Origin: a virus | IMG/VR virus record: IMGVR_UViG_3300008516_000159 | Strand: one strand, 5' to 3' | DNA: 64,000 nucleotides | Shown here: in pieces, positions 6,579 through 58,690 of the stretch | How the letters are laid out: each line of letters begins with the position of its first letter | How positions within the stretch are numbered: the stretch's first letter is position 1 | Made by a program: the position numbers and the translations under genes | Notes under the pieces: generated by a model | What the model saw: only the letters and a program-made list of their open reading frames with translations | Told to the model about the DNA's origin: nothing | Databases searched by the model: none

Positions 6579-7602
6579 GTTTTTGCTCGTAGTTTACACA
6601 ATATTTTTTCGGGCCCATGTGCATCTTTTTAGAATACAAACATCGGCTATAAGTCTTGCGATAATACCGACAGCTACAACACAGATTCTCCGTCGGTAAC
6701 TCAGTGAATATTGTAAACTCTCTGTCAGGAAAATCGTGATTGAGTGTCTTGATTATCTTGTATGTAAACACCAAAACGTTTTTATGCCTGTCTTCTTTTT
6801 CATATATGAGACGCGTGCCGTCACCAATATAATGCTTTCTCAGTTCGTCTTCCAGCCTACGACCGCCAACGTACTTGTTGTTCAAAAAGTATTTTAAATG
6901 CCCCTTTCTTTGCGTATTGATTGTGACGGTTTGTGTTACGTTGGAATTATTTATTTTATGCTTGATACTTATTGACGCCGAAATCATTTTTTATTGGGTG
7001 GCTCTTCCGCGGCCCTCAAATCTTCCAATTGTTGAAGTGCCTGGCCGTCATATTTAGCAAACAGGTGATATATTAGTTCCAGATTTTTGTTGGCTTTTTT
7101 CAGCTCCAGCAGTATCCCCTTGAGTAGTTCATTATTGTCTGGCATTACAACCTCGCCACAAACTCATTCAAATGAGCCACGCACTTTTGTAATATTTTAT
7201 TGGTTTCTTCAGCTATAACGGGCTGTAGATCCGAATATTCCCCGACAATCAAATCGGCCGTCTTGGCGATAAGAGCGCCGAGCCTGTGAATGTTTGTGTA
7301 GTTGCCTTTGTCGTTTATGGTCTTGCTGGTGACAGTTACCTCTTCTTCGTTGGGATATACACTCGCCTGGGTTACTGGATGTGCATATTCAATTTTGCCC
7401 GCCATATCCTCTTTTAAGACTTCAAGTTTTTCCATCACCTCTTTCATCTGCCTGCCGGCTTCTTCCTTGATGAGTTCAATGGCTTCGGCTTTGGTTATGG
7501 TTTGGGGCTCTTCCGAGTCGGGGGCGTTTTTTATGACAGGCTTTTCGAAGCCCTTGTCTAATATACGACCCTCTATCTCAAGTTGTTTGAGTTCATCACT
7601 CA

Positions 7603-25359: not shown

Positions 25360-27468
25360 TCATATCTCAGGCACCATTATTTTGTTTATAATGAGATCAC
25401 CATCCCGCATCTTGCCCATTTTGAAAACCAAAACTTTATTTTTGATCAGGTTACGAGCACTTTCGTTAAATTGATGCGCAAACAACGGATAACGCCTTAC
25501 TCCGTTCTCATCCCTAATCGATACAAAAGCCATCATGTTGCCGTTTCTATCGCGCTTTCTTGTTACATCAGTTATAATGCCGATCAAAGCCCTACTATCA
25601 AGCATGCTTTTCAGCTGTGCTATCTCATCGGCCTTTTCTTCATACAGTATCATTGATATATCCAATGTCAATAAGTCCTGTAATAACTCCAGCTTTTCCT
25701 GCTTGTTCCAATCTGTTCCTTCCCTGGTCTTGATGAACTGTTCAAATGGAACTTTTGCGCCCTTCTTGCGCCACTCATCATAGTTAGTATACAGCGTCCT
25801 GCGATTGCCGTAAAGCTTATCAAAAGCGCCCGCTTGTATCAAGCTGTCAAGAACCCTCTTGTTTACTTTCGTGCCGGTTTTGTGCTCCTTCAATTTGGTG
25901 AAAAAGTCAGTAATACTCTCATGAGGCGCGTGCTCGGAAATCCATTTAGCGGGAACCACGCCGCAGTTCTTGACATGGCTCAATCCATAAATGACGGTCT
26001 TGTCGTCTATAATGCTAAAGTGCGTTTTACTTTTGTTTACGTCCGGATATAATACTTCTATACCAAGCTGCTTACATTCAGCAGTCAGCCTATCCACAGG
26101 GGTTTTGTCAGAGTTCAACGAGGCGCACATAAACTCAACAGGATAATGGACCTTGAGCCACGCGGTGTAATACGCAATGGTCGCATACGATAAAGAGTGG
26201 CTGCGGTTGAACTGGTAACCGGTCTGTTTGATAAGATATTCCCACAGCAGCCTCGTCTCTTTCTGATTTCTGTTTTTCTTTTGACAGCCCTCGAAGAACT
26301 CCTGCTCCCACTTCTTTTTACCCTTGGTGTCATTCTTGAACTTGGAGTGCCATTTTTCCATATAGCGCCTGAGTGAGTCCGCGCGGCCCAAACTAATTCC
26401 GGATGCCATGTGCGCAATGTTGATGGTTTGTTCCTGGAACACCAATAGACCCAAAGTAGGTTTTAATACCTCTTCTAGAACAGGATGCGCATACTTGATC
26501 TCCTCTTCGCCGTGTCTGCGTTTGATGTAGTTGTTTATAATAGGAATAGAACCTGGCCTGAATAAAGCATTCATGATTACAATATCCTCAAATATTTTAG
26601 GTTTCAGCTTTTGTAAATAACCTTTCATCGATGGACTTTCAAACTGAAACACAGAGGTGGTCAGGCCTTTGCCAAATAATTTATAAACATCTGGAACCTC
26701 GAAGTTTATATTATGTATGTCTATTTCTTTTCCATGCCTCTCCTTTATAAAGTCCAGCGTATCATGAATAATTTTGAGAGTAGACAGTCCGAGTATGTCA
26801 AGCTTCAACAGTTTCATTTCTGCTATTGACTCACCATCAAACTCAGTCAAAAGCATGTCATCATCCCTGTTGTACTGACATGGAATATATTTTTGGACAG
26901 CCTTGTCCGCTATGATGATGGCGGCTGCGTGTTTGCCATAGTTACGCATCTGTCCTAACAGTTTCTCAGCAAACTTGAAGATTTCAGGATACTGGTGATA
27001 AGCGCTGCTTTCGTTCCAGTTAGTTTCGTCTATGTTCTTGGATATAGCAATAGCTTTCTGGGCGGGTATACCATGTATTCTCGCGGAATCCTGAAAAGCT
27101 GACTTGATGGAATAAGTAATGACGTTACACACCTGAGCGACGTTCGTCTGACCAAATCTTCGCTTGATGTAATCAATGACATCACCTCTGCGGGCATCTT
27201 CAAAATCAATGTCTATATCAGGAGCTTTGCCAGATATCGTCAATTTTTCAGGTTCGTCATTTATGGGATCATGATGAATGTATCCCAACAAATACCAAAT
27301 CAGGATATTGGGATGCGGGTCGGTTCCGTTATCAACATCTTTCAAAAGGTTGGTGTGAGTTATGATCTCATATTTCTTGAACTCTTTTAGTTCATAATCC
27401 AATCGCTGGCGATGCTTCTCGTCGTTTATGCCTTTTTCTTTCAACAGGCGGTATAGTTTTTCTTTCAT
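25360..27468 (-). CDS. dnaE: DNA polymerase III alpha, C-terminal part (catalytic palm, fingers, HhH, OB)
   Basis: APDIDIDF, GKHAAAIII, KLDILGL, VFQFES, GYQFNRSH, OB fold. No PHP domain and no GRGS. Confidence 0.95.
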   Translation of the reverse strand: MKEKLYRLLKEKGINDEKHRQRLDYELKEFKKYEIITHTNLLKDVDNGTDPHPNILIWYLLGYIHHDPINDEPEKLTISGKAPDIDIDFEDARRGDVIDYIKRRFGQTNVAQVCNVITYSIKSAFQDSARIHGIPAQKAIAISKNIDETNWNESSAYHQYPEIFKFAEKLLGQMRNYGKHAAAIIIADKAVQKYIPCQYNRDDDMLLTEFDGESIAEMKLLKLDILGLSTLKIIHDTLDFIKERHGKEIDIHNINFEVPDVYKLFGKGLTTSVFQFESPSMKGYLQKLKPKIFEDIVIMNALFRPGSIPIINNYIKRRHGEEEIKYAHPVLEEVLKPTLGLLVFQEQTINIAHMASGISLGRADSLRRYMEKWHSKFKNDTKGKKKWEQEFFEGCQKKNRNQKETRLLWEYLIKQTGYQFNRSHSLSYATIAYYTAWLKVHYPVEFMCASLNSDKTPVDRLTAECKQLGIEVLYPDVNKSKTHFSIIDDKTVIYGLSHVKNCGVVPAKWISEHAPHESITDFFTKLKEHKTGTKVNKRVLDSLIQAGAFDKLYGNRRTLYTNYDEWRKKGAKVPFEQFIKTREGTDWNKQEKLELLQDLLTLDISMILYEEKADEIAQLKSMLDSRALIGIITDVTRKRDRNGNMMAFVSIRDENGVRRYPLFAHQFNESARNLIKNKVLVFKMGKMRDGDLIINKIMVPEI

Positions 27469-32349: not shown

Positions 32350-33570
32350 TTATCCTAAGAATTTTATTGTTTTACCGCCTAATCTTTCTGGATTTAAGAA
32401 GCGCTCAAACTGTAACTTGTGTACAATAGGATCAACATCTGTTATGTTCAGGGCATAGGCTATAAGAGATCCTGCTGCGCTTCCCCTGCCAGGTCCTACA
32501 TAAATATTTTCAGACTTGGCCCAGCCAACTATATCTGCCACTACTAAGAAATAAGAAGAAAATCCTGCGCTATAGATGATCTTGAGTTCATAAGCCAATC
32601 TCATCATGTAGGTGTCATTTCGCAAGCATCTCCTATCCAGACCCTCTACGCACTTTTTGCGGAGTATCTCATCAAGGTCGGCGCCCTCGAACTCTGGAAT
32701 AGGAGGCACGATATAATCATGCTGCTTAATATCAAACACCTCTATTTTATCGGCTATCTTTACGGTCGTATCACACCACCCCTCAATGTCCTTTTTATCG
32801 TAGCCGGTGTTTATGCCTTCTCTGATGATTTCTTCTCTTGAGTGCAAATATATATTGTCTTCGTCGAATTGAAGCCCTTTGTCGTCGCCTACTTTACCGC
32901 CAGTATTGACCAACAGCAGTTTGGCGTGATCGTCTTTCTGATCTGCCGTTATATAGTGGGCATCAGCGGTGATAATGGCTGGAACCTTCAACATTTTCCA
33001 GAACTTGTATAGTTTTATTTCTATGGCTTTTAATCTCTCGGTCTGATGTGGTTGAAACTCTATATAAAAGTCATCGCCAAATACATCAAGATACCAATCT
33101 AGGTTCCTCTTGGCCGCTTTTATATCATTGTTTATCAACATGCTTGTTACATCGTTGGCAAGACAGGCGGTTGTGGCTATTATATTTTTACTGTACGCCT
33201 TCAAGGTCTCTCTATCTATACGCGGTCTTTTATAAAAACCATAACGATGACCAATATATTGCATCTGCATTATGTTACGATAACCTTCGATGTTTTTCGC
33301 CAACAGTACAACATGAAAACGTTTTTCTCCCTTTGGTTTGACTTTCAGATCATCAACCATATAGGCCTCAACACCTATCAACGGTTTGATCTTGTATTTC
33401 TCGGCAAGGTGCCAGAACTCATAAACTCCTGACATTGTTCCATGATCGGTTATAGCTAAGGCAGGCTGCCTTAGTTCTTCTGCTACATACTTAAGGCGTG
33501 CTTTTTTCGTCCCTAGCCCATCGAGTGCACTAGAATCGGTGTGTACGTGAAGATTTACGAAGTTATCCAT
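32350..33570 (-). CDS. dnaE: DNA polymerase III alpha, N-terminal part (PHP domain plus palm start)
   Basis: HVHT, ITDHG, GVEAY, DAHY, GPGRGSAAGSL, FERFLNPER, then ends before PDIDID. Confidence 0.95.
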   Translation of the reverse strand: MDNFVNLHVHTDSSALDGLGTKKARLKYVAEELRQPALAITDHGTMSGVYEFWHLAEKYKIKPLIGVEAYMVDDLKVKPKGEKRFHVVLLAKNIEGYRNIMQMQYIGHRYGFYKRPRIDRETLKAYSKNIIATTACLANDVTSMLINNDIKAAKRNLDWYLDVFGDDFYIEFQPHQTERLKAIEIKLYKFWKMLKVPAIITADAHYITADQKDDHAKLLLVNTGGKVGDDKGLQFDEDNIYLHSREEIIREGINTGYDKKDIEGWCDTTVKIADKIEVFDIKQHDYIVPPIPEFEGADLDEILRKKCVEGLDRRCLRNDTYMMRLAYELKIIYSAGFSSYFLVVADIVGWAKSENIYVGPGRGSAAGSLIAYALNITDVDPIVHKLQFERFLNPERLGGKTIKFLG

Positions 33571-46875: not shown

Positions 46876-47604
46876 ATGGATCTCGGTAAAATTAAACCCG
46901 AAAAAATAAAGACAGATTCGGTCGACAAAATAGATGATTTTGAAAACGACCAACTAGGAGCACTAAAACAGAGGAGAGTATGGCTCTCGATGCGCGATGA
47001 AGTAGTTAAAGCTTTAAGACATGCGGAGGCAAAAATCGCGAGGGCCAAAGCTATGAAGAAGCCAATCAAACGTGTTGCAGAATTGGCTAAAGAGATCAGG
47101 GGAGCAAAAAAAGAAGAAGCTAAAAAGAAATCCAGCAAGAACCTCAAGGAATTTATGGAACAATATGTAGGCCAGTTCCAGTTTAAAAAGGGCAATTCTG
47201 CGTTGGGTTTCTCTCGAGGCCACAGCAATTCGATTTATAACAAATATGGCTTTGACCAAGAAAATCTTAAAGTAGAAGATTTGGAAGCCATCAAAGAGTT
47301 TGTTGTTTACGCGAAAGGCCTCGTGAAAAAGGATAATAAAGACGTTCACGCTTTAATGGACGTCTGGACAAAAGCTCTGGATAGGACGATTGCAGATTGG
47401 CCAAAATCATTTGACGATTATGGCAAGGAAATTGTCAGTGAAATACTAGATGCCCTATTTGAGCTCGAAGACACCAGAGAAGAAAAAGAAAAATATATGG
47501 ATAAAGTAGATCTCGTAACCTCTCCTATGAATGATTCGGATTTTGTAGTTGCGAAAAAAGCAACGCCTCCGCTTCAAACCAAGGGAGACTACGAGAAATA
47601 CTAA
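46876..47604 (+). CDS. hypothetical protein (242 aa)
   Basis: Long helical, charged ORF with a GGAG SD. Confidence 0.65.
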   Translation: MDLGKIKPEKIKTDSVDKIDDFENDQLGALKQRRVWLSMRDEVVKALRHAEAKIARAKAMKKPIKRVAELAKEIRGAKKEEAKKKSSKNLKEFMEQYVGQFQFKKGNSALGFSRGHSNSIYNKYGFDQENLKVEDLEAIKEFVVYAKGLVKKDNKDVHALMDVWTKALDRTIADWPKSFDDYGKEIVSEILDALFELEDTREEKEKYMDKVDLVTSPMNDSDFVVAKKATPPLQTKGDYEKY

Positions 47605-48755
47605 TGAACAAAATCAGCCAATACTTACGTAACAAAGAACTTACGCCGTGTGACCTGAAAACTCTGATACATTACATTGAAATAATTAGAGATATCGTCA
47701 ATTTGCCAGATGATATAGATCAGCTATCTGAAATTGCCGGGCTTGTAGCAGAAGAGCCCGGTGATTTGCTTGATGAAGCTGCTAGGAGAGTTGTAATTGA
47801 TGTATTAGATGCTTTAGATCAGGTAGATATTGATAGTGCTATTGCGGAATGTGACAACGATGACAACATTAGTCTTAATAATGGCGACTGGGATTAATAA
47901 CCGCGGCGCTCAATCTTTACGTCCCTCAAAGGCTTGCCGAACAAACATCTTTTTGGCTTTCAAAGGCGTATGGCTAAAGTTGGATAAACGATCTTGATCA
48001 TAATTTCCAGGTAATATCAACCCCTCCTTGTGGCTTGTGTATATGTTTTTAACAACTCTATAAGTGACAAGAGTTTCTATGCCGCTCCCAATCATTACAG
48101 ATATCTTGCCTTTGTCTATCACGACATAAAGCACGTTCTGCATGTTCTCAGCCTCGATATAGGCCGCAAGCACTCTGTAAATTATATCACCTCTTTTAAA
48201 TGGTTTCATGTTTGTTCGCCTTCTATATTGTGCCGAAACGCTCGAAGTATTGCTCCTCTTTTTGCTTTTCTTAAAGTAGAATATACAGTTTGCGTCGGAG
48301 CCTCGTCATAGTCGCCTACTTTTAAGGCCTCCACACCGCTGAGTTTGCATAGCATACTCTTGATGATAGTAAAACCTACTACATCCTGATGGACTTCTGG
48401 GTCGTCTATTCTCACTTTCTCGATCGCGATACCGGTTACAGAAAACTTGGGATGAAAGCTGGCAAATGTTCTGTATGCAACATCACCCTTTTTCATTCTG
48501 AGTACCACCAAAACAATCGACTTATGATAACGAGTTTGACTTCGATTAAGATCTTATAAAGATTATCCGTGTGAGCTTTTGAAAAATCTCCGGGTCCTAA
48601 AGCAAAGCCTTTTGCTTTGGGAGAGGCATACAACGAATCTTTTATACGTAGAGATGCCAACTCTATGCCTTCGGGGCTGTTTAATAGTTCAGCTCTTGAT
48701 ACCTCCAGCATAGACGGCGAAGACGCACTTATTAAATAAACTAAATCTCCTTGTC

Positions 48756-49945: not shown

Positions 49946-50297
49946 TGGAGCCGGGGAGGTTCGAACTCCCGTCCCTCGAATATTCACTTTGAAACACTAC
50001 ATGCTTAGCCCTGCTGCGGGATTCGGTTATTAATTCACAGGACGAAACGTCATAACCTAGCCTAACTTGTTTTTCGCTTTTGAATCGGTATTGGCTTCGG
50101 TTCAAATAGCATAGTCTCCGTTTCTGACGCCCTATTTCTCACCAGAGACAATAAGAAATAGAACGGCTGCTTAATTAAGCAGCAAGTGCAAGTGTTTCGT
50201 TAGCAACTATAGTTTGAATGGTCTTTTAAAGAGCCTTACCAAACTCTGCATGCGTCTCAAAGATCATCATCCCAGGTCGAATCCAAATGTCGGCCCC
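49946..50297 (-). ncRNA. ssrA: tmRNA, tag (A)ANETLALAA
   Basis: 5' GGGGCCG and 3' CGGCTCCA acceptor stem with G3:U70. T-arm GGGAG-TTCGAAC-CTCCC. Tag ORF at 50175-50204, preceded by ATAGTT and followed by a stem. Confidence 0.97.
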
Positions 50298-56486: not shown

Positions 56487-56863
56487 GATATCATGAAAAA
56501 CGGTCTATCTAGCCAATGTTGGATTCTGTATATATGAAAGAATATTGAAAAATAAAGCTTGCGCAAAATAGGATTACTTTTAGAGCCCATTATGGAATCA
56601 ACCTTCCTGTGGGCTCTCATTTGTAAACCACAATAAGTATCCATCCCAAGACCCATTGAGCCTAGTTTTTCAATCTTGGCTGATACATCAGGGTCATTTT
56701 CGCGGCCCTTGTGCTGGTCGAGGTAATCGCACACTTTATCAGACGGCTTGCCTACTATACGATTCCAAATCTTGTCTACTATTTTGCCAAACAGTTTGAA
56801 ACACATATCGCTTCTCCTTGTTATTATAATATCACACACTCCTCTTTTTGTAAAGCATTAATT

Positions 56864-56935
56864 AGCCCCTACTCGGATTCGAACCGAGATAAGATGGTTT
56901 TAGAAACCACCGCCTAACCATTCGGCCATAGGGAC
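56864..56935 (-). tRNA. amber suppressor tRNA (anticodon CUA), Cys-like body, U73
   Basis: GTCCCTA/TAGGGGC acceptor, GTGGT-TTCTAAA-ACCAT anticodon arm, CTCGG-TTCGAAT-CCGAG T-arm. No encoded CCA. Confidence 0.9.
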
Positions 56936-56939
56936 ACAA

Positions 56940-56957
56940 GCCGGTATCTCTACCGGC
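56940..56957 (-). other. perfect 7-bp GNRA hairpin immediately 5' of the suppressor tRNA
   Basis: GCCGGTA-GAGA-TACCGGC, between a CATATATA motif and the tRNA. Confidence 0.7.
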
Positions 56958-56959
56958 TA

Positions 56960-56967
56960 TATATATG
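56960..56967 (-). promoter_or_regulatory. CATATATA putative promoter of the suppressor tRNA
   Basis: Recurrent motif, 25 nt before the tRNA 5' end. Confidence 0.55.
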
Positions 56968-57995
56968 TTACCTCTTCAGTTCCCAAAGACGAATTTTACC
57001 ATCGGTTTCGCCCTTGATAAACATACCGCTTTTGCGTACAGCCTGACACTGCCCTATATTCATACGTTTGACTTCATCGCCTAGCACAAAATCCATGGTT
57101 AATTGAGACCACCGACCTGAGGAAAGATCTTCTCTTATGTGCCAACCATTCTGGATCATTCTGATAACAGAGATCGTGCTGTGCTCGGTTGAATCTTCAA
57201 CAAACTTTTCGACTTCCTTGGCTACTTTCTCGAAGCTTTTGATATAATCATTAATCTTGCTTTTGAGGGTATTGCCTTCGTAGCCTGGGAAATCCAGTCG
57301 TATCTTCGAGTAATCTCCATCATGGTCCCATATCCAACTTTGATAGTCCATGGTTATAATATCCACCTTGCTGCCCCTCGTAGATATCACAAGCTCGTCG
57401 CCTTCAATATACTGATACGCGCCATCCCAGTAGCCAGGCTTTTGCTCCAAATTGAATATCGCACCACCTGGCACCCTGACATAATCTTCGGGGCTTTCTT
57501 TTTGCAATAGCGCAATAAGTTCTTTTACTTTCATACCGTTAACAACTCCTTCGCGGCACACTTGCGAGCTCTAGGGGGAACATAAGGCGCTTCTGCCCAA
57601 ACGATAACTGTTTGTCCTAACTCATTGTGGGTCGTCTTATAACCCCAATTCTTGAGGGTGGTGTGGATATCATTTTCATCGGGCATGTTGTGCTTAGGTT
57701 GTTCAATCTCGTCGCGTGTTCGGCCACGAATTAAGCAATACGCAATGTGCTGATGACGATATAAATGGCTCAAATTCTTGGGACTGCTTTTGTACATCGC
57801 TTCCATTATGTTCCAGTACGCCTCTTTGAGTCTATCCCAAGCGCCGCGGTGGCGCATCTCTCGGGGTAGACCGCAAACACGCTGAAATCTGGAAAGCGCT
57901 CTTTGTTTTTCTTTGTAAATTGGTTTTGCTTCTTTGATTTGGTGAGCGAGCTCTTTGAGCTCTTCTTTGATTTGTAGATATTCTTTCTTTGTCAT
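56968..57995 (-). CDS. two hypothetical proteins (57531-57995, 56968-57561) downstream of the amber leader
   Basis: 154-aa and 197-aa ORFs; the first carries HIAYCLIRGR..EIEQP. Confidence 0.7.
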
Positions 57996-58106
57996 TGTCT
58001 TTCTCCTATTTGATTTTAATTGGCGTGAATAGGAGCGACAATTACGGTGGTAATAAAGCCTATGTCATTCTGCTTTCCTCCTTTTTGTTACATGTTATTA
58101 TATATG
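57993..58106 (-). promoter_or_regulatory. leader with an amber-containing uORF and an SD/AUG-sequestering hairpin
   Basis: CATATATA, then AGGAGG, ATG ACA TAG GCT TTA TTA CCA CCG TAA, then TTGTC-G-CTCCTATT pairing with AATAGGAG-AAA-GACAA(TG). Confidence 0.65.
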
Positions 58107-58690
58107 TCTCATCTATTATCTTTATCGTTGGAAACCTAAAAGCAAAGCTTTGGCGAGATCTCTTTTATTGGCAGGAACTAAACGCTGTGTCTTAAATATA
58201 GCTTCTAAACTACGCTTGTCGGCGAAACAGCCGTCTGTCGAGCCTTCTGAATACATATATTTGAGACGGTATTCGCTGGTAGGCAGATAGAAAGGCTCAT
58301 CCTCTTTGAACAAATGCAATTCTGTTATTTCTGCGATTCGCCACATGTTCGAAACCGCGGATTTATAAATCCCGTTTTTATATGGTTTATTGTCGCTTGT
58401 TATACGTGGCAAATTCATACTGAATAACCGCCTCTTACAGATTTTATGCCGTATGGACTTTCAATCGTTTCTTTTGCCAAGTCGCGGACCTTGCGGGTCT
58501 TGGCGTGGCACTTTATACATTCTGCCACTATCCTTATTCTTCCGCGAGGAGCTTCAGAATGTACCTGTATTTCGCCTCCGCAATATTTGCAAAAGAAAAC
58601 ATATTTCTGTCCCTTGTTAACTGCCACAACTTTCCCTCTTTAATTCAATTTTATCTTGAAACAATACTGTTAAGGTAGGGAGTTAAAAAG

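Follow-up and report, generated by a model that had tools for sequence, protein, structure and literature searches.

A candidate amber-readthrough-sensing leader-peptide switch linked to suppressor tRNAs in a phage and its relatives

A 64,000-nucleotide (nt) stretch of the virus record IMGVR_UViG_3300008516_000159 (here, the window, with all positions numbered along its whole length) contains a short leader that is likely a leader-peptide translational switch, with readthrough of UAG as its input and a gene that we call X as its target. The leader, whose features all lie on the minus strand, holds a small upstream open reading frame (uORF) with an in-frame amber codon, followed by a hairpin predicted to mask the Shine-Dalgarno (SD) sequence of X. 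A gene for an amber-suppressor transfer RNA (tRNA) lies downstream on the same strand. Sequence features and predicted fold come together in the leader, the design is conserved in relatives, and across the family it is linked to suppressor tRNA genes. An amber-readthrough-sensing switch had been proposed for this site from its letters alone (hereafter, the original prediction), and the comparative sequence evidence supports that interpretation.

RESULTS

A uORF with an in-frame amber codon precedes a predicted SD-masking hairpin

The leader occupies 126 nt of intergenic DNA between an open reading frame (ORF) of 98 amino acids (aa), with its stop at 58122, and the 154-aa ORF X, which starts at 57995. 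An CATATATA motif (58106 to 58099) is the likely phage promoter element of the leader transcript, a role suggested by its over-representation in the window. Further 3', a strong SD, AAGGAGG (58083 to 58077), stands 8 nt 5' of the ATG (58068 to 58066) of the uORF (58068 to 58042), which reads ATG ACA TAG GCT TTA TTA CCA CCG TAA (M-T-amber-A-L-L-P-P-ochre). The amber codon, our proposed sensing codon, is codon 3 (58062 to 58060) and is followed by a G, and the Pro-Pro codons CCA CCG (58050 to 58045) are directly 5' of the terminal TAA (58044 to 58042). The promoter-like motif, the SD with its spacing, and the uORF codons were all found on rereading the sequence where the original prediction had placed them. 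Only one SD-ATG-NNN-TAG arrangement in the window has a read-through frame that ends in Pro-Pro-stop, and it is this leader.

The hairpin begins at the last base of the uORF TAA. Its 5' (anti-SD) arm, ATTGTC-G-CTCCTATT (58042 to 58028), is separated by a 17-nt loop from the 3' arm, AATAGGAG-AAA-GACAAT (58010 to 57994), which contains the SD of X, AGGAG (58007 to 58003), and the A and U of the X start codon. All five SD bases are paired in the predicted fold. Folding of 57990 to 58045 with ViennaRNA gave -14.7 kcal/mol with a z score of -4.33, none of 200 shuffled sequences was as stable, and the SD-masking stem is both the minimum-energy and the centroid fold and also forms in a 131-nt context. 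A stem burying the SD and the AU of the next start codon had been part of the original prediction; the minimum-energy fold agrees, except that the 5' arm ends at 58028 rather than 58027.

Two other arrangements were considered. A sigma-70-like hexamer pair inside the hairpin (58041 to 58013, 9 of 12 matches) was rejected, such matches being no commoner in the region than expected by chance. On the plus strand, from 47800 onward, AGGAGA is followed by ATG TAT TAG ATG CTT TAG ATA AGA TAG ATT, with three in-frame TAGAT repeats; this stretch sits within the ORF at 47604 to 47897, in another frame, and probably arose by chance.

The amber uORF and the hairpin are retained in close and distant relatives

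The cluster of X proteins at 90% identity has seven members, all on short metagenome contigs, with four sequence variants of the leader. All four variants retain ATG-NCA-TAG-GCN-TTA-NTA-CCN-CCG-TAA. Three of the four changes 3' of the TAG (GCT to GCC, GCT to GCA, and CCA to CCC) are synonymous in the read-through frame, and the fourth (TTA to GTA) replaces Leu with Val. The exact uORF pattern gave no match in a scan of viral contigs.

An exhaustive HMMER search identified about 200 remote homologues of X. Among those at 45 to 48% protein identity, where the TAG at codon 3 is conserved, three lineages keep an amber uORF beside an SD-masking hairpin. In the first (L007, 48% identity), GGAGG is followed after 7 nt by ATG AGG TAG GCA CGA CCA CCA TAA and then by a perfect SD-masking stem of 12 base pairs (bp), CUUUCUCCUAUU/AAUAGGAGAAAG; the leader differs in length by one codon (3 nt), which preserves the frame, and a tRNA with the anticodon CUA, tRNA(CUA), comes after one further gene. 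The leader of L013 (45%) encodes M-T-amber-T-T-I-P-P-ochre before a 12-bp stem. That of L089 (46%, on a 189-kilobase [kb] viral contig) encodes M-T-amber-S-A-R-G-P-opal before a 13-bp stem, the flanks of which differ from those in the window on both arms, and a tRNA(CUA) lies 1 kb downstream. These three leaders fold with z scores of -2.8 to -5.7. In L013, the loop of the SD-masking hairpin contains an CATATATA motif (positions 377 to 384); transcription from it would give an RNA that is without the anti-SD arm and escapes the switch.

Homologues at 35% identity (L014 to L017) have the same tRNA array, transfer-messenger RNA (tmRNA), and upstream gene, and there X is joined to the upstream gene by an ATGA overlap, with no leader. 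No tRNA(CUA) was found in the 8.4 kb of DNA examined for these relatives. One distant subgroup has no separate leader ATG; its upstream gene ends in TAG, and the frame runs on as ...*IAQLPDT*VIRGPP... (asterisks here and below, in-frame TAG).

Conservation of the uORF, its TAG, the Pro-Pro-stop, and the stem was what the original prediction looked for in related phages, and it is seen in the four close variants and the three lineages at 45 to 48% identity, with hairpin flanks altered on both arms in relatives. Relatives that keep the gene without uORF and stem were to count against the idea; this check speaks for it, as the leaderless ones that we found are those in which no tRNA(CUA) was seen either.

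In-frame amber codons are enriched upstream of a Pro-Pro anchor across the family

A scan of metagenome and viral contigs with an alignment of four sequences yielded 73 more loci, from which family-wide counts were computed with purpose-written scripts. There were 64 leader lineages, 60 of them with a CCNCC (Pro-Pro) anchor, and stops were counted in each frame of the 20 codons that precede the anchor. The counts were 94 TAG, 22 TAA, and 5 TGA in frame 0, against 18 and 21 TAG, 31 and 55 TAA, and 35 and 22 TGA in frames 1 and 2, respectively. TAG is 4.5 to 5 times enriched in the Pro-Pro frame, the only frame in which TAA and TGA are depleted.

Of the 60 anchored lineages, 56 carry one to three in-frame TAGs, uninterrupted by any other stop, before a Pro-Pro at the 5' edge of the anti-SD arm, and 38 have two TAGs. 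Typical leader peptides are MT*IGFT*IRGPP..., ML*IGKRLDMG*VAKLKPP-ochre, and MR*IRYPP*VRGPP..., and an SD before ATG-NNN-TAG recurs. RGPP is encoded in 21 of the 60 leaders of relatives and RAPP in 2, at the 5' edge of the SD-masking helix. The base after an in-frame TAG is A or G in 90 of 97 cases; in Escherichia coli, a purine 3' of an amber codon is a context that favors suppression over termination. The first stop 3' of Pro-Pro is TAA in 35 leaders, TGA in 13, and TAG in 4.

Masking of the SD is likewise a property of the family. At least four of the five SD bases of X are paired upstream in 60 of 74 family leaders (81%), compared with 62 of 189 control genes (33%; Fisher test, 1e-12), and the mean SD pairing probability is 0.85 in the leaders versus 0.53 in the controls, which are 189 genes from the window and from a 189-kb relative (G001; polymerase 74% identical). 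The last TAG lies 5' of the anti-SD arm at a median distance of 19 nt (interquartile range, 13.5 to 24.5), and for the start of the Pro-Pro codons (CCNCCN) that median is 1 nt.

Leaders are linked to suppressor tRNAs, and the internal stop matches the anticodon

The amber-suppressor tRNA of the window (56935 to 56864, minus strand) was identified by ARAGORN and matches the Rfam tRNA model with 57.4 bits; it has the anticodon CUA, a short variable loop, and a discriminator U. It is the only CUA tRNA in the window and lies on the same strand as the leader, behind two genes, as had been noted originally. Among 40 distinct X loci with at least 1.5 kb of downstream DNA, 33 encode a suppressor tRNA in the same orientation and no more than 2.7 kb downstream; it often adjoins X or is set off from it by a single small gene. 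The suppressor tRNAs of the family are very diverse.

Both loci that have a tRNA with a UUA anticodon carry TAA rather than TAG as the internal stop. One leader (L069) encodes M-S-G-F-T-ochre-I-F-D-C-R-A-P-P..., and the other (L081) encodes M-I-ochre-I-F-K-P-P-opal, in which the terminal TGA is a codon that an ochre suppressor does not read. The anticipated co-occurrence of leader and suppressor tRNA is seen, with a match between internal stop and anticodon.

Two further observations concern these loci. In two closely related leaders, the second amber position is TGG (Trp) in one (L044) and TAG in the other (L082), a single-base change that is at most a weak hint at the residue tolerated there. 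In five loci (L044, L082, L088, L057, and L072), X and the tRNA(CUA) gene overlap, with the last 36 to 38 nt of the X frame lying in the 5' part of the tRNA.

TAG serves as an ordinary stop codon in this phage group

The window is part of a contig that is 191 kb long in public data and comes from a large phage with a split family-A DNA polymerase, a DnaB-like helicase, seven tRNAs, and a tmRNA. We considered whether TAG might be a sense codon, as in a recoded phage of the code 15 type, and rejected this on stop-codon usage and coding density. TAG terminates 19 of 135 crude ORF calls in the window; coding density is hardly altered when TAG is read as sense (0.887 versus 0.892), and doing so fuses no protein domains. 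In G001, which served for comparison at the scale of a larger genome, TAG terminates 53 of 276 ORFs, coding density is 0.864 versus 0.878, and the terminase frame is open, without internal stops. By these sequence measures, the window phage is not recoded, and phages of this group use TAG as a normal stop, in line with the earlier view of a genome that otherwise uses TAG as a stop.

No relative was found among deposited phage genomes by blastn with two stretches of the window or by tblastn with the X proteins of the window and of two other loci (L052 and L050), and no cultured phage with the module turned up in these searches.

A proposed mechanism for the leader

We infer from these features that the uORF is translated, that this tRNA reads its amber codon, that the output passes from OFF to ON, and that both proteins encoded behind the leader have a later role. 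The leader mRNA would probably start just after CATATATA, and ribosomes would load at the strong leader SD and begin the uORF. The leading edge of a ribosome is about 11 to 15 nt beyond the first base of its P-site codon. Without suppression, translation would terminate at codon 3: with UAG in the A site and ACA (58065) in the P site, the leading edge would be at about 58054 to 58050, at least 8 nt short of the stem at 58042. Because the ribosome would stop short of the hairpin, the SD and start codon of X would stay paired.

Decoding of the UAG by the phage tRNA(CUA) would carry the ribosome five codons further, to CCA-CCG-TAA. Once CCG (58047) is in the P site and UAA in the A site, the edge would be at about 58036 to 58032, and the ribosome would cover and unwind about 58042 to 58032, nearly all of the anti-SD arm. 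The lower stem would come apart along with most of the CUCCU, and the remaining A-U pairs would be too few to hold the SD. Pro-Pro before a stop codon slows the ribosome and would here be expected to prolong its stay. The freed SD would allow translation of X, and the second gene, which encodes a 188-aa protein and has a start that overlaps the X stop, would follow by coupling. X and the 188-aa protein may be factors that are needed or tolerated only during active suppression, or they may feed back on suppression.

Several observations weigh against this mechanism or against parts of it. At 7 of the 40 loci with enough DNA, no suppressor tRNA was found downstream, although one of these has a UUA tRNA 586 nt upstream. 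The lineages are related, so the family-wide counts are not fully independent. Two of the close variants have an uncompensated C.A mismatch in the 5' arm, and their hairpins still form, at -10.5 kcal/mol (L004) and -12.4 kcal/mol (L006); the stem therefore tolerates some weakening. The window leader ends in Leu-Leu-Pro-Pro-stop, which is neither the RAPP/RGPP arrest motif nor a proven arrest motif, so the pause may be short and the switch may rest on ribosome passage alone. Finally, the tRNA of the window has its own CATATATA, so sensor and tRNA need not share one transcript here.

A further idea, which we hold only tentatively and consider rather doubtful, is that the whole module (leader, X, second gene, and tRNA) is a feedback controller that sets the strength of stop-codon suppression in the infected cell, a regulated partial code change in phages for which TAG has remained a stop. 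In such a controller, the target of the basic, coiled-coil X might be the suppressor tRNA or its charging, or else termination, and the result would be a homeostat or a commitment switch.

Genes and motifs around the leader

The order on the minus strand is leader, X, the gene for the 188-aa protein, a second CATATATA motif, a hairpin with a GAGA tetraloop, and the tRNA(CUA). X (57531 to 57995) encodes a basic protein with an isoelectric point (pI) of 9.6, and the median pI of its family is 9.4. Its AlphaFold model, with a predicted local distance difference test (pLDDT) score of 96.4, is a long helical hairpin or coiled coil with a small C-terminal part. X has no match in Pfam or PHROGs, and no convincing structural relative was found by Foldseek against the PDB, by VIA-align wide, or in the ESM Atlas (features and shape). 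The structure matches were generic coiled coils with Z below 7, and the Atlas rows had template modeling (TM) scores below 0.4, some of them from winged-helix DNA-binding families. A predicted complex of X with E. coli RF1 scored 0.01, below the mark, in a run without controls, and says nothing either way.

The second gene (56968 to 57534, minus strand) has a start that overlaps the X stop as ATGA. Its 188-aa product belongs to a small family of seven and has no Pfam match, and its model (pLDDT 70) has no fold match. The product does not reach the cutoff of the peptidyl-tRNA hydrolase family PTH2 (Pfam PF01981). At 30 other loci, a PTH2-like gene of 90 to 100 aa, unrelated to the 188-aa protein, lies between X and the suppressor tRNA; the proteins match PF01981 weakly (24.7 and 23.6 bits against a cutoff of 23), and others are below the cutoff. 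Examples are L046 (positions 1060 to 1329), L050 (4173 to 4472), and L069 (4164 to 4463), and the gene is conserved in most of the distant loci and absent from the clade of the window.

The CATATATA motif occurs 22 times in the window versus 2.6 expected, an excess of about 8-fold, and most copies precede a gene start by 15 to 60 nt, on the coding strand (e.g., 42508 to 42501 and 24177 to 24170, both on the minus strand). Since it is over-represented and mostly found shortly 5' of gene starts, it is probably a phage-specific promoter element. The copy 5' of the tRNA (56967 to 56960, minus strand) is followed by GCCGGTA-GAGA-TACCGGC (56957 to 56940, minus strand), a perfect 7-bp hairpin directly 5' of the tRNA that may be a processing or attenuation signal for it. 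The stretch with the motif and the hairpin is unchanged in three close relatives (L001, L002, and L004).

Elsewhere in these genomes, a tmRNA gene (tag ANETLALAA or ADENLALAA) lies a few kb from the suppressor-tRNA module, at 49946 to 50297 in the window (minus strand), at 7148 to 7495 in L014, and at 108175 to 108519 in G001. Read-through ribosomes that arrive at mRNA ends would need rescue of the tmRNA type. The family-A DNA polymerase (phrog_405) is split into a 406-aa N-terminal ORF (32350 to 33570) and a 702-aa C-terminal ORF (25360 to 27468), both on the minus strand and about 5 kb apart, with other genes between them. In G001, the C-terminal part matches as two pieces about 0.5 kb apart.

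DISCUSSION

Alternative explanations of the leader

The same architecture could serve another input. Instead of the phage tRNA, the leader might sense how efficiently UAG is terminated in general, as set, for example, by loss or inhibition of host RF1 during infection or by near-cognate readthrough; RF1 depletion had also been named as an input in the original prediction. All that the design can register is whether ribosomes get past the UAG, and leaders with two or three TAGs would filter weak near-cognate readthrough whichever input applies. We nevertheless consider a general sensor unlikely, given the tight linkage of suppressor tRNA and leader (33 of 40 loci) and the use of an internal TAA at the two UUA-tRNA loci; TAA is read by both release factors, so loss of RF1 alone would not open such a leader. 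The relative without a tRNA(CUA) in the DNA examined (L014 to L017) is also without the leader. Alternatively, the output might be different, with the downstream tRNA as the main product: translation behind the leader would protect the transcript from premature termination or decay, and readthrough would feed back on synthesis of the cotranscribed tRNA. This is compatible with a switch that controls X, and at most loci the tRNA does follow immediately on the one or more genes that the leader precedes, in the same orientation; a minus-strand search from leader to tRNA in the window gave no terminator-like site. As the main function, it seems quite improbable, because the tRNA of the window has its own CATATATA 25 nt upstream and X is a conserved family with a confident predicted fold and so no mere spacer.

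Two other explanations dispense with readthrough of the uORF. If the TAG is a true stop, ATG-ACA-TAG would be a two-codon mini-ORF for loading or trapping ribosomes, the hairpin would be opened by some other factor, such as temperature, a protein, or RNA processing, and the in-frame Pro-Pro-TAA would be a coincidence. Two-codon minigenes exist in phage lambda (the bar regions), and the window by itself does not discriminate between a mini-ORF and a read-through leader. The relatives do: the frame from TAG to Pro-Pro is kept in 56 of 60 lineages, with TAA and TGA depleted in that frame only, the 3-nt length difference in L007 preserves it, most changes 3' of the TAG are synonymous, and the internal stop matches the anticodon, all of which makes a mini-ORF very doubtful. 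An untranslated RNA sensor, finally, might bind the suppressor tRNA by pairing of UAG with its anticodon, as a T-box does, and so open the SD helix. UAG is complementary to the CUA anticodon, and translational T-boxes that mask an SD are known. Even so, a permissive Rfam scan of 56700 to 58300 picked up the tRNA alone and not the T-box covariance model (Stem I, specifier loop, and T-box sequence), and the leader has a length of only about 75 nt. In most lineages, the first TAG comes two codons after an ATG that has a strong SD. With the triplet-frame statistics and the encoded RGPP and RAPP motifs also pointing to translation, we regard such a sensor as extremely improbable.

Implications of a probable readthrough-sensing switch

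If the leader is indeed a switch that senses UAG readthrough, it would give the suppressor tRNAs of non-recoded phages a purpose and a natural target, and it would mean that the decoding state of the cell is something that phages keep track of. A further gain would be a testable route by which stop-codon reassignment could evolve under control. The X family, with its roughly 200 remote homologues, would be marked as part of the machinery of translation termination or suppression in phages. For genetic code expansion, the leader would be a compact, naturally optimized, low-leak reporter of amber suppression. Should the more tentative feedback-controller idea hold as well, the module could represent an intermediate stage on the way from phages that have the standard code and "orphan" suppressor tRNAs to phages that are fully recoded.

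Comparison with known leader-peptide systems

Leader-peptide switches as such are textbook material. To our knowledge, no natural one has stop-codon readthrough, and hence suppressor-tRNA activity, as its signal; we know of engineered versions only. In its layout, the leader resembles ermC with its leader peptide ErmCL. In both, a short leader has its own SD (in the window AAGGAGG, with SD, ATG, and triplet frame conserved at the sequence level), and the SD and start of the next gene is paired to an arm that is covered by a ribosome at the leader end. In our case, that pairing within reach of the ribosome is predicted by the fold and recurs in six lineages and in 81% of the family leaders. The output of both is translation initiation. 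However, ermC responds to a drug-stalled ribosome and uses four alternative segments, whereas the window leader would respond to passage of an in-frame stop, with suppressor-tRNA activity as the signal, through a hairpin of two helix arms.

Like the trp and his attenuators, the leader has codons in a tiny ORF that would report the supply of one tRNA. In the attenuators, a shortage of charged tRNA stalls ribosomes at sense codons, and the step under control is transcription termination; ribosomes on the window leader would proceed when the tRNA is present, with control of translation initiation. In prfB, which encodes RF2, an early in-frame stop gauges termination against alternative decoding. 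The window leader likewise would use an in-frame stop as a gauge of the competition between termination and other decoding, but the alternative in prfB is a +1 frameshift within the RF2 gene itself, whereas here it would be suppressor-tRNA readthrough in a separate leader, acting via an RNA hairpin.

The leaders of some relatives end in RGPP or RAPP, the motif of arrest peptides of the RAPP/RGPP class (ApdA, ApdP, and ApcA; compare RAGP in SecM) (PMC7897499, PMC10951233, PMC12992588). These published arrest peptides monitor protein export and have no stop codons before the motif (PMC7897499, PMC10951233, PMC12992588), and there is no mention of phage, stop codons, or suppressors in PMC12992588. 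The window leader contains no Arg and hence no Arg-(Ala/Gly)-Pro-Pro core. Since the motif is present in relatives and not in the window, the wider arrest-peptide class overlaps the leader family but does not include the window member.

The closest counterparts are man-made. In UAG leader-peptide switches engineered for genetic code expansion, a TAG in the leader makes downstream expression dependent on tRNA(CUA), and several TAGs cut the leak from near-cognate readthrough (PMC6412442), a principle that the natural leaders with two or three TAGs also follow. The engineered switches are built on tna and trp leaders and act on transcription (PMC6412442), whereas the window element is natural, phage-borne, and predicted to act on translation. 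A full-text literature search and the main paper on recoded phages yielded no natural leader of this kind. The leader is very probably a known architecture with a new natural input, a design that, as read from their sequences, is shared by dozens of unrelated-looking phage loci.

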